64,000 nt of DNA from Trueperaceae bacterium (GTDB lineage: Bacteria > Deinococcota > Deinococci > Deinococcales > Trueperaceae). Of this stretch, positions 1-52,969 are shown one piece after another. The stretch lies in the NCBI GenBank assembly GCA_965215565.1, contig CBDCDZ010000004.1, positions 1,216,001 through 1,280,000 of the forward strand, in the 5' to 3' direction. A program made the position numbers and the translations under genes. The notes beneath the pieces are model-generated. The model saw only the letters and a list, made by a program, of their open reading frames with translations, was not told the DNA's origin and did no database searches. Numbering within the stretch: the first letter of the stretch is position 1; every line of letters begins with the position of its first letter.

Positions 1-111
1 AGAGTGAAAAAAGCAACCTTTTGCCCCTTTTTTGGCAACCCTTTGGCAACCTTTGCTCTTTAAGATAAGAACAAGCCAGGGAAGAAATCCCGGCACGAAA
101 AGGAGAGAATT

Positions 112-10832: not shown

Positions 10833-11065
10833 AACGCTCAGTGTAGCTTAAAAGAGTGTCAGCCAGCCAGATTTGCTGGTTTTACCTGACCTGCTGAAAC
10901 GCCGACGAGCTGACAGGTTCTTCTGTGAGCAGTTCCAAGACATACTGAGACGGGTGAGCGCAGATATCATCTCGGAATATGCGCGCTAGACGCCGTTTCA
11001 TCTAGTGAGCGTGTTGCTTCGCACAACTTCGTACACTCAAACCAGATGAACTTAGTATAGAGTTG

Positions 11066-12004
11066 TCAAGCCCCCTTCCACCTCTGTGGGTGCTGCTGAG
11101 TGACTTGCAGCATGAAACGAAAGAGTTCTCTTGCGAGATAGGTTTTGAGACTTCTTAGAGCAGCCCGGCGGGTCTTGCCTTGCTGCTGTTTCTTGTCGAG
11201 ATAGGCTCTTGTCGGTTCGCTGTGGCGCAGTCTGACTTGGGCAATCATGTGAAAGGTGCGGTTGAGCCGACGGTTGCCGCCGATGTTGAGTTGCCTTCTC
11301 TTCTGACCACCAGAAGAGCGCTCGACAGGCGCACAACCTGAATACATGGCAAAGGCGTGTTGTGAACGAAAGCGTCGGATGTCACCTGCTTCAGCAAGTA
11401 GCGTGGCGGCGTGAACGACGCCGACGCCAAAGACCTCTAAGAGTTCAGGCATCAGTTCGTCAACGAGGGCTTTCATCGCCTGCTCGAGCGTCTTGAGTTG
11501 TTCTTTAAGCACTGCAATAACGGCTTCGACGGCTTGGCGAGCCACCTCTAGCTCAAGGCTCGCTAAGCTCAGCTTGTGCGCTGTAAGCTGTTTAGCTAGC
11601 GCTTCTCGGGTGCGGGTCAGATGTTTGAGGTCTTCAACCGCTTGCCGAGGTGCAAACGTAGTCAGCTCAGGATTAGCCAAAGCAGCCCGAGCTACGTTTT
11701 CAGCGTCTACCTCATCACTCTTCTTGCGTCCTCTTTTGCTGCGGTACTGACTCGTCAGACTCGGACTAATGTCCACAACCTTATGGTCCTGCCCGAGCAA
11801 CGCTTGACTCAACCTCCGAGCAAAGGGGTTATTCGCCCCTTCAATAGCGCACCGCTGAACGTCATAGCGCTTTATCCAGTGCTCCAAAGTTGCCAAGCCC
11901 TCAGCCGTATTCGTAACGGTGCAGTGACCTAATACCTTGCCCTGTTTATCTAACGCTGCTGCGGTATGGCTCTGCGGATGTGGATCAACCCCTATAATGA
12001 CCAT
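11066..12004 (-). CDS. IS110 DEDD recombinase/transposase
   Basis: IIGVD, AIEG, KSDEVDA, C-terminal SSG and GGNRRLN; AAGGAGG RBS. Confidence 0.95.
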   Translation of the reverse strand: MVIIGVDPHPQSHTAAALDKQGKVLGHCTVTNTAEGLATLEHWIKRYDVQRCAIEGANNPFARRLSQALLGQDHKVVDISPSLTSQYRSKRGRKKSDEVDAENVARAALANPELTTFAPRQAVEDLKHLTRTREALAKQLTAHKLSLASLELEVARQAVEAVIAVLKEQLKTLEQAMKALVDELMPELLEVFGVGVVHAATLLAEAGDIRRFRSQHAFAMYSGCAPVERSSGGQKRRQLNIGGNRRLNRTFHMIAQVRLRHSEPTRAYLDKKQQQGKTRRAALRSLKTYLARELFRFMLQVTQQHPQRWKGA

Positions 12005-12019
12005 ACAACCTCCTTAGGT

Positions 12020-12160
12020 TGCTGCTCACGGTAGCTGCTTATCCGTCTATGAGGCTACTAAGCGTCTTAGTATCAGGCAAGCTCCGTGTAGCTTAGTGAG
12101 CGAGGTGTGCAGTTCATCTGTTAGCCCTAAAGCTGATACTTGCTGGGCATCACCTCGCTT
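12020..12160 (-). ncRNA. Putative IS110 bridge RNA
   Basis: Two stem-loops with internal loops. One carries AGCAAGTATC and CAGATGA (target guides); the other carries ATACTAAG and ACGGA (donor guides). Confidence 0.8.
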
Positions 12161-12370
12161 CTCTTAATATACGGATACCTGCTATGTGAACCATCTTAAA
12201 CAGTGCGAGAAGAAATATGCTACCTTGAACTATGTAACCCTTACATCTTCACCGCTTACGGCAGCGCGCTGCTCTTCGATGTTCGCCCGAATGAGCACAA
12301 ACCGGGGGAAACGCGAGCGAAGAGTAGGTGCTTTTTCCAAACGTACATATTCCTCATTGCGGAGGAACAC

Positions 12371-12796
12371 ATGAAAACTAACAAGCCCAGGGTGCGTACA
12401 CTCCAGGAGCTTCAGCCTTTGGTCAAGCGCGGCGATTACCGCATCTGCGCCCACGCCGTCAAGCACGCCGCCTGTGAGGGCTTCACCGAGCGTGACATCG
12501 TCGGCACGCTGCTCTACGGGCGCGAACTGCTGCGCTACGTTCACGACGAGCGGCTCTTAGTCTTAGGCTATATCCGCCCTAGCGTAGAGGTGCAGATTCC
12601 CTTGCACGTGGTGCTCGAGTACGCCAAGCCGAGGTGGGTGGACGTTGTGACCGCTTTTATCCCCAAAGACGCCCATCACGCCATCTCGCGCGAACGCCTC
12701 GCGCAGATGCTGCGCTACGACCGCGCGCCCAAAGAGCGCGAGGGGAGAGAGCGTCGGGAGAACGTCAAGTTAGTCGGGCGTGAGCTGAGGTCTTAG
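12371..12796 (+). CDS. DUF4258-like protein
   Basis: GGAGG RBS; HAVKH, IPLHVVLEY, VVTAFIP. Confidence 0.7.
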   Translation: MKTNKPRVRTLQELQPLVKRGDYRICAHAVKHAACEGFTERDIVGTLLYGRELLRYVHDERLLVLGYIRPSVEVQIPLHVVLEYAKPRWVDVVTAFIPKDAHHAISRERLAQMLRYDRAPKEREGRERRENVKLVGRELRS

Positions 12797-25649: not shown

Positions 25650-25900
25650 TAGCAGTTCCAAGACATACTGAGACGGATGAGCGCAAGTAGCATCATCGAA
25701 TGTGCGTGCTAGTTAGGCACTTTTCGCAAAGCGAAACGTCGTTTCATCTAGTGAGCGTGTCTCAAACCAGATGATACCTGCTATAGCAATTAACTAACGT
25801 AAGTACTGAGCTTGAATCACGCAAGTATCATCACAATTAAGTGCGCGCTAGAGCGTGCGCTCTCTTCTCAGACTGGCTCAAACCAAATGAAGTTCCGCTA
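25650..25900 (+). repeat. MITE-like repeat copy 3 (25650-25783) plus a degenerate tandem copy (25784-25900)
   Basis: TAGCAGTTCCAAGACATACTGAGAC...CTCAAACCAGATGATACCTGCTA; the second copy ends CTCAAACCAAATGAAGTTCCGCTA. Confidence 0.85.
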
Positions 25901-37169: not shown

Positions 37170-37347
37170 TAGCAGGTATCATCTGGTCAGAGTGTACGAA
37201 GTTTTGCGAAGCAACACTCTCACTTTGTGAAACGCTGTTTCACTGCGTGAAAACTTCGTAATTAGCACGCACTTCAAGGGATGATACCCTTGCCAGAGGC
37301 AAAACTTCGTAAGCGTTCAACTGTCTCAGTGTGTCGTGGAACTGCTA
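37170..37347 (-). repeat. MITE-like repeat copy 5 (a degenerate inverted copy follows at ~37400-37535)
   Basis: TAGCAGGTATCATCTGG...GTGGAACTGCTA. Confidence 0.85.
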
Positions 37348-52807: not shown

Positions 52808-52969
52808 TAGCAGGTATCATCTGGTCAGAAACGCTCTTATCTTACAAAACAATGTTTAGCACATACTTTAAGGGACGACGCCTTTGGCGTTGCCAAAACT
52901 TCCGTCTCCCGCCTTTGGCGGAAGCCTACGGAAAGCGCTCAACTGTTTCAATACGTCGTGGAACTACTA
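52808..52969 (-). repeat. MITE-like repeat copy 6
   Basis: TAGCAGGTATCATCTGG...CGTGGAACTACTA. Confidence 0.85.

Follow-up and report, generated by a model that had tools for sequence, protein, structure and literature searches.

We analysed a window of 64,000 nucleotides from a Trueperaceae bacterium (contig CBDCDZ010000004.1, positions 1,216,001 to 1,280,000). Within it, an insertion sequence (IS) of the IS110 group lies on the minus strand and splits a short repeat of the MITE type. The features at this locus, together with three uninterrupted targets elsewhere in the window, are as follows.

11048..12175, minus strand: IS110-group insertion sequence, 1128 bp including both TC cores; junctions identical in seven full copies
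12174..12175, minus strand: left TC core, from the junction comparison of copies
11048..11049, minus strand: right TC core, from the same comparison
11066..12004, minus strand: recombinase gene, 312 aa, with D7, E55, D97, D100 and S231 (Pfam, IS621 alignment, homologues and predicted model)
12176..12184, minus strand: left tip of the host MITE, TAGCAGGTA, which is the left target (copy junctions and a survey of MITE tips)
10927..11047, minus strand: rest of the host MITE (right target, inner inverted arm and right end), from a profile match
12185..12187, minus strand: left copy of the 3-bp MITE target duplication, ACA
10924..10926, minus strand: right copy of the 3-bp MITE target duplication, ACA
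25767..25782, minus strand: empty target in another MITE copy, exact 16-mer
37171..37186, plus strand: empty target in another MITE copy, exact 16-mer
52809..52824, plus strand: empty target in another MITE copy, exact 16-mer

The coordinates given in the preliminary description for the IS, the empty sites and the guides all held when the sequence was read again, and the exact 16-mer was found at each of the three places where an empty site had been described. The element itself had been delimited as 11048..12184. The IS proper occupies 11048-12175, and positions 12176-12184 are the MITE tip. A 141-aa frame on the plus strand (window 12371-12796) has a weak DUF4258 match under the curated cut-off and is kept in both congeners.

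The filled site reads AGCAGGTA-TC-element-TC-ATCTGG, and TC occurs once in the empty site. This junction reading agrees with the earlier proposal that the IS splits its target at TC. The two TCs have different neighbouring bases, which limits the core to exactly 2 nt with no extension possible. With the IS removed, the locus becomes a 132-bp MITE, and the reconstructed site matched the MITE profile at E 5e-28. Six sites in the window match the 16-mer with at most three mismatches, against 0.30 expected, and none of 100 shuffles reached six.

The ends of the element have the traits of the IS110 family. Long terminal inverted repeats are absent, a short core is common to both ends and the target, and insertion is sequence-specific, with seven of seven full copies and six relics at one base. 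The left end spans 169 bp, the right end runs 16 bp past the stop codon, and a short sub-terminal repeat (ATA...TAT) flanks the donor; these features place the element in the IS110 group and not the IS1111 group. The available text of PMC11208160 describes the IS110 group as having its RNA in a long left end, a short right end and a sub-terminal repeat of 2-3 bp.

The 312-aa frame matched the Pfam families DEDD_Tnp_IS110 (E 6e-22) and Transposase_20 (E 1e-20), and it has the N-terminal DEDD RuvC domain and the C-terminal Tnp domain with a catalytic serine found in IS110-family proteins. Among solved structures, its sequence relatives are IS621 and ISCro4 only. Residues E55, D97, D100 and S231 align with E60, D102, D105 and S241 of IS621; D7 lies outside the stretch aligned with IS621 and was assigned by motif. 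In 45 aligned homologues, picked from the best 120 of 223 protein matches, D7, E55, D97 and D100 never vary, and S231 shows at least 90% conservation. The predicted model has a mean pLDDT of 89.7, and its top fold match was IS621 (TM 0.72, 26% identity). Named records of close relatives, among the matches listed, indicate Trueperaceae/Deinococcota. The domains, the IS621 fold and the TC at both junctions agree with the earlier view of the protein as a 312-aa, TC-core bridge recombinase.

The interrupted repeat has the anatomy of a MITE. It is short (about 110-350 bp), non-coding and multicopy, and it ends in terminal inverted repeats (TAGCAG...CTGCTA). Its own genome contains 228 exact left tips, and a profile search returned 556 matches, a number that counts matches and not copies. 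We examined 209 tips, of which 116 had a detectable right end; an exact 3-bp duplication was present at 90 of these 116, compared with 6 of 116 in a shifted control. The orthologous locus of a congener (G002) has neither the MITE nor the IS, and presence is thus polymorphic between relatives, although the flanks there have diverged, so that the exact empty site was not aligned base for base. The terminal repeats, the 3-bp duplications and the absence at the congener's locus bear out the earlier identification of the repeat as a MITE.

Several searches of the own genome for an autonomous partner of the MITE were made. Among long elements with MITE ends and a duplication we found only a deleted IS copy, and orphan MITE right ends and multicopy long repeats yielded no partner. 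A search of this genome for the ISAzo13 family found no partner, and a control search was equally silent. At IS630-type DDE_3 loci in the own genome, MITEs lie beside or inside the locus and never form its ends; two broken IS630-type transposase remnants at G000:C4:1932700-1934800, for example, each have a MITE copy beside or inside. As the own genome yielded no such partner, the label 'MITE' rests on anatomy and polymorphism.

Stop-free frames of at least 200 codons make up 78% of the chromosome, and 26 of the 228 tips fall within such frames. The intergenic position of the tips suggests that the MITE may serve the IS as a safe harbour, as the preliminary description had proposed. A second MITE subfamily (B, 52 copies) has the ends TATAGCAAG...TTGCTATA and a body in common with the first subfamily (A). 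The tip of subfamily B is an exact match of the left target guide described below, and one B end lies near window positions 25785-25800. Lengths within subfamily A step by ~22 bp: among 145 copies measured, 58 fell at the base length, 28 at +22 and 17 at +44. The steps are small hairpin modules inserted at fixed spots, which we take to be reminiscent of the very small repeats of cyanobacteria.

The own genome carries seven full copies of the IS. Six are identical, one has a single SNP, and the junctions are the same in all seven. A junction search added six relics at the same TC, four with a left junction and two with a right junction. Whether other copies sit in the same MITE position had been put forward as a check, and the seven full copies and six relics all do. 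A MITE flank was present at 11 of the 12 left-junction and 9 of the 15 right-junction matches in this genome; the other one and six, respectively, were rejected as chance matches, with neither IS nor MITE sequence adjoining. On this comparison of copies, the element is intact and has recently spread, and from its six identical copies it is apparently active. Contigs from 4 of 10 sequencing runs at the locus contained no end-to-end joint, a blank that we did not count as evidence. Contig depth in X2 was ~263-270 on the IS and 28-29 on the flanks; it gives no copy number and was left unused.

The seven copies sit in MITE bodies of varying sequence and length (108-197 bp), yet the IS stays the same, which indicates that the IS entered MITE copies that already existed. 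These host bodies also bear on two other accounts of the association. The first is passive spread, in which the IS moves as the cargo of a MITE-IS composite carried by a MITE transposase, or by duplication. Exact 3-bp duplications are kept by four of the seven IS-bearing MITEs, and two copies lie in nearly the same MITE body, as passive spread would have it. However, most host bodies differ around an identical IS, and no autonomous MITE partner was found in the own genome, and we regard this account as extremely unlikely. In the second, the IS110 recombinase is the mobiliser of the MITE, and the MITE derives from the IS. Such a relationship would fit the constant association of the two, but core recombination does not create terminal inverted repeats or variable 3-bp duplications such as the MITE has, and the MITE contains no donor sequence and is abundant in genome G001, where only a distant IS110 was found. 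We give this second account practically no credence, and the entry of an independent IS into resident MITE copies remains our preferred reading.

Remnants of the element were also observed. A deleted IS copy at G000:C4:3452615-3453450 has lost its left 378 bp and lies between two identical 69-bp copies of MITE body; the left tip of the MITE is undamaged, and of the two junctions the right one alone remains. This arrangement could have arisen from a one-ended event or from local duplication. MITE copies at G000:C4:687476, 3341785, 269795, 160174 and 695978 retain 8-27 bp of an IS end at the target, and two of these IS-end/MITE joins share short words, as deletion would give. At G000:C4:421020-421967 lies a second IS110, more distant (56% identity), which contains an internal stop and whose left end has diverged.

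The non-coding left end of the IS is predicted to encode a bridge RNA with the following parts.

12024..12158, minus strand: predicted bridge RNA, without a 5' stem-loop (consensus fold and covariation in 10 left ends)
12100..12158, minus strand: target-binding loop of the predicted RNA
12024..12092, minus strand: donor-binding loop of the predicted RNA
12135..12144, minus strand: left target guide AGCAAGUAUC, with a mismatch at position 4 to MITE A and exact to MITE B
12114..12120, minus strand: right target guide CAGAUGA, 7 nt, exact to A and with one G-T wobble to B
12112..12113, minus strand: target-loop handshake guide AC, complementing donor positions 7 and 6 (T, G), from the IS621 rule and homologue pairing
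12066..12073, minus strand: left donor guide AUACUAAG, matching donor positions -1..6 and neither position 7 nor the core
12042..12050, minus strand: right donor guide AU[AG]ACGGA, bulged by 2 nt like that of IS621, from the sequence against the IS621 template
12040..12041, minus strand: donor-loop handshake guide UA, complementing target positions 7 and 6 (A, T), from homologue pairing

The left end folds at z = -3.7, and none of 200 shuffles was equally stable. RNAalifold, run unaided on 10 aligned left ends, produced two hairpins with open internal loops. The structure that we then named and scored was drawn from these same 10 left ends, which favours its score: 98% of cells are paired, 14 of 28 pairs change on both sides, and none of 500 shuffles scored as high. 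When the structure was slid along the alignment as a control, 1-4 pairs changed on both sides. The predicted RNA has the two covariation-supported stem-loops with internal loops that characterize a bridge RNA. A fold of the single sequence that paired part of the left donor guide was rejected because the consensus fold leaves this guide open. An Rfam search returned no match at E up to 1.

Four guides had been named in the preliminary description, and we confirmed each in its place: AGCAAGTATC at 12135-12144, CAGATGA at 12114-12120, ATACTAAG at 12066-12073 and ACGGA at 12042-12046. The account of the donor guides needed amendment, as the left one ends two bases short of the core, and the list lacked the two handshake dinucleotides as well as the extension that the right donor guide has beyond a 2-nt bulge. 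The broader claim of an IS621-type layout stands, with a match to the IS621 template and a two-loop fold that shows covariation. Each handshake dinucleotide complements positions 7 and 6 of the opposite DNA, not those of its own, which is the insertion-favouring state.

Across the genome, 292 14-mers with a TC core differ from the guides at no more than one position. All were in the MITE, and five block shuffles gave 0-2. The sites comprise 234 subfamily A tips, 52 subfamily B tips and six others, which by inspection are MITE ends or inner arms. The guide pair sits one change from each subfamily, with a mismatch to A at left position 4 and a right G-T wobble to B. The left target guide has one mismatch to every occupied site, and 2 perfect sites are empty. 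All 52 subfamily B sites are empty and 13 of 13 junction-bearing loci are A-type, a preference for A over B that is not significant (13/13 vs 234:52, P ~0.07). None of the 13 loci lies in the 67 near-matching inner-arm sites.

These counts raise the question of a gate, in which the MITE inverted repeat or protein contacts outside the 14 bp would pick A tips in addition to RNA guidance. A gate would supplement, not replace, the bridge-recombinase explanation. The target lies within one arm of an inner inverted repeat, and the 13 junction loci avoid both the inner-arm sites and the subfamily B tips. There is also a precedent in the structural gate reported for ISPpu10 (10.64898/2026.03.19.712850, in the available part). 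However, the inner-arm sites differ in the right target, so that base pairing alone could explain them; the bias against B is not significant; and relatives of the element insert in unrelated sequences that follow their own guides. We therefore consider a gate rather unlikely, and base pairing by the guides remains our principal explanation for the choice of site.

The covariation of guides and targets in homologues had been suggested as a check on this explanation. Scanning genome contigs with an alignment query recovered homologues; a single-protein query found none. Of 39 loci, we scored 32 and dropped seven (four without a left end, one diverged, two duplicates). Left guides matched their cognate left targets at 5.4 of 7 positions, against 2.91 for non-cognate targets (20 distinct guides), and right guides matched theirs at 4.24 of 5, against 1.48 (17 guides); one mis-parsed row (L036) was retained in these scores and lowers the cognate means. 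On each side, 0 of 20,000 permutations reached the cognate value, a figure that overstates the result because the homologues are related to each other. In the near clade alone, 52 of 20,000 permutations did so on the left (six guides) and 8 of 20,000 on the right (seven guides). Guides and targets thus covary on both sides. Because the search patterns demanded a TC core as well as portions of the -10 box and donor guide, these features do not count as independent tests.

The remaining contacts were compared in the same homologues. After exchange, handshake position 7 pairs in 26 of 27 target loops and 27 of 28 donor loops that could be parsed, compared with 2 of 27 and 0 of 27 before exchange; position 6 is weaker (12/27 and 4/28). 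The left donor guide matches positions -1..6 in 14-15 of 15 distinct pairs, the first four positions being partly imposed by the search pattern. Beyond these, position 7 is matched in 4 of 15 pairs and position 8 in 10 of 15. Near relatives match position 7 in 2/6 and position 8 in 1/6, and distant relatives in 2/10 and 10/10, respectively. Target-guide covariation, matches in both donor arms and post-exchange handshake pairing are all properties of an IS621-type system. From these comparisons of sequences, RNA-guided targeting of the MITE tip is strongly supported, by virtue of the compensatory stem changes, the guide/target covariation and the handshake pairing.

Some homologues fit their guides loosely (L061 4/7 on the left; L031 3/5 and L056 2/5 on the right). 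We considered whether insertion is much looser than the guides imply, needing half a match, with the MITE pattern left by the survivorship of harmless insertions. Half-match insertion has been reported for IS621 in the available part of 10.64898/2026.08.31.748434, and L056 and L061 fit their own guides poorly. Selection alone, however, would leave insertions in many intergenic places and not at one base in 13 of 13 loci, and both target guides match that one base. Such loose insertion is very unlikely here. We conclude that the locus very probably holds an autonomous IS110-group bridge-recombinase element aimed at the tip of a resident MITE. The predicted guide RNA spells the tip of a repeat present hundreds of times, which is why every copy sits there.

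The two ends of this element also hold the halves of a candidate junction promoter.

11064..11069, minus strand: TTGACA -35 box of the right end; it overlaps the stop codon and was seen in all 32 right ends examined
12166..12171, minus strand: TATATT of the left end, resembling a -10 box and lying 18 nt from TTGACA after joining, with its function assigned by analogy with IS621

TTGACA was not required by the junction patterns used to find right ends. Its distance to the core is 14 nt in all near relatives and 8 nt in most of the distant ones. A promoter scan of the linear region gave no sigma-70 match. The preliminary description had proposed that circularisation would join TTGACA-18-TATATT, and we found that the arrangement forms only with the ends joined.

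By analogy with IS621, low read-through transcription would supply the recombinase and bridge RNA, and the element would leave as a circle, either excised or copied. The joined ends would build the TTGACA-18-TATATT promoter and drive more bridge RNA. The target loop would pair with 14 bp around TC at the MITE left tip, the donor loop would pair with the circle junction, and the DEDD/serine site would cut and exchange the top strands, with both handshakes set for insertion. The MITE would supply about 290 intergenic landing sites, and the genome offers no other near-match to the guides. Bridge-RNA targeting, junction promoters and handshakes are established in the accessible portions of PMC11208160, PMC11208158 and PMC13626964, and copy-out and half-match routes are described in those of two preprints (10.1101/2025.10.25.684509, 10.64898/2026.08.31.748434).

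We compared the element with characterized systems. The bridge-RNA mechanism is already known from IS621, and homing of an IS110-family element into a MITE is known from IS1111/QMITE2. IS621 of Escherichia coli (PDB 8wt6/8wt9) has a similar recombinase fold and similar catalytic residues at ~26% identity. As in IS621, the predicted RNA lies in the left end and has a bulged-A/UGC helix, a 9-nt left guide and a 7-nt right guide plus handshake; the bulged base, UGC helix, 3-nt linker and short stem match the template in the available part of PMC11208160. An 8-nt left donor guide, a 2-nt-bulged right donor guide, a junction promoter and a multicopy intergenic target are likewise described for IS621 in the portions at hand, as is a natural non-canonical pair at left-guide position 4 (PMC11208158).

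Other features set the element apart from IS621. Its core is TC, whereas that of IS621 is CT, with a T at position 9 that is almost invariant in orthologues according to the accessible text of PMC11208158. The structured RNA lacks a 5' stem-loop and measures 135 nt, compared with 177 in IS621. The left donor guide reads -1..6 here and 1..8 in IS621, and the 312-aa protein targets a MITE tip, whereas IS621 targets REP. In the available part of PMC11208160, the core belongs to all four IS621 pairings, and pairing patterns are diverse across the family. With the core outside left donor pairing, a TC core and no 5' stem-loop, the element falls outside the narrow IS621 subtype, and we do not class it as an IS621 orthologue in that strict sense. 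The figures of Durrant et al. may already show these differences.

ISCro4/IS622 (10.1101/2025.05.14.653916; PDB 9t56) has the same fold and RNA layout, but has a CT core, is 88% identical to IS621 and is far from the present clade. IS1111 of Coxiella burnetii lies near the 5' end of QMITE2 in 20 of 21 copies; its group carries the RNA in the right end and has sub-terminal repeats, and QMITE2 duplications are 7-11 nt (PMC5896051). Among other IS110-family elements, IS4321/IS5075 target Tn21 terminal repeats and differ in group, host and target, and ISPpu9/ISPpu10, from other groups and hosts, are aimed at REP repeats. Our literature search, which took in few subscription papers and not ISfinder, returned nothing on the clade, the MITE or the phrase 'TC core'. 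In the part of the Durrant 2024 supplements that was available, Deinococcus, Truepera and the clade's donor-guide words gave vector/barcode matches only.

The guides of relatives were also compared. The elements in G002 (92%) and L031 (71%) share with ours both the target guides and the MITE. An insert of ~78 bp with inverted ends (L002:1243-1500) breaks the G002 gene and places stops just after the start codon. In G054 (75%), three copies lie in that genome's form of the MITE, which matches the profile at E 1e-9 to 2e-3, and are inserted 3 bp further in. Seven of 12 non-core guide bases are rewritten in this switch between elements 75% identical, and the six empty guide-matching sites in G054 all match the MITE profile. 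A tree of 20 rows placed G054 with L031 and joined them to the pair formed by our element and G002. Support was moderate (94/89 and 82/87), so the tree only suggests the direction of the 3-bp switch along the MITE. ISXne4 is 72% identical to ISEc11, and the available part of PMC11187229 reports changed guides and a changed, unrelated target for that pair; unlike ISEc11/ISXne4, one relative here shifted 3 bp within the same repeat family.

We tentatively propose a Deinococcota-centred clade of compact TC-core recombinases in which the donor loop reads the left donor shifted outward by two bases, ignoring the core, and guides track host repeats by species, including the 3-bp MITE-tip switch; this reading is possible and falls short of probable. 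The shifted left-donor geometry was not found in the literature examined. If the clade is as proposed, it would supply bridge editing with an orthogonal core and document guide rewriting in nature. The element brings to another phylum the known strategy of aiming an IS110 guide at a multicopy intergenic repeat, and it is a clean natural example of the mechanism described in 2024, departing from the model system in a few small ways. It is also a possible tool orthologue: it is compact, shares only ~26% identity with IS621, uses a TC core disfavoured by IS621, and comes with a right target guide that is naturally 7 nt long and with both handshakes in the state that favours insertion. Its relatives constitute matched natural guide/target sets that bear on guide rewriting and on the need of the left donor guide for the core.

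The relative in G046 appears to use a different repeat. The site predicted from its guides is present at 55 places in G046 and at one or two in each of four other genomes; the single such locus tested had no MITE-profile match. The element's own site fits the left guide at 4/7. L092 and L061 (G046) contain a distinct tandem repeat with a period of 21-33 bp, in which a related GGTATCATCT word occurs; this repeat is apparently what the G046 element targets.
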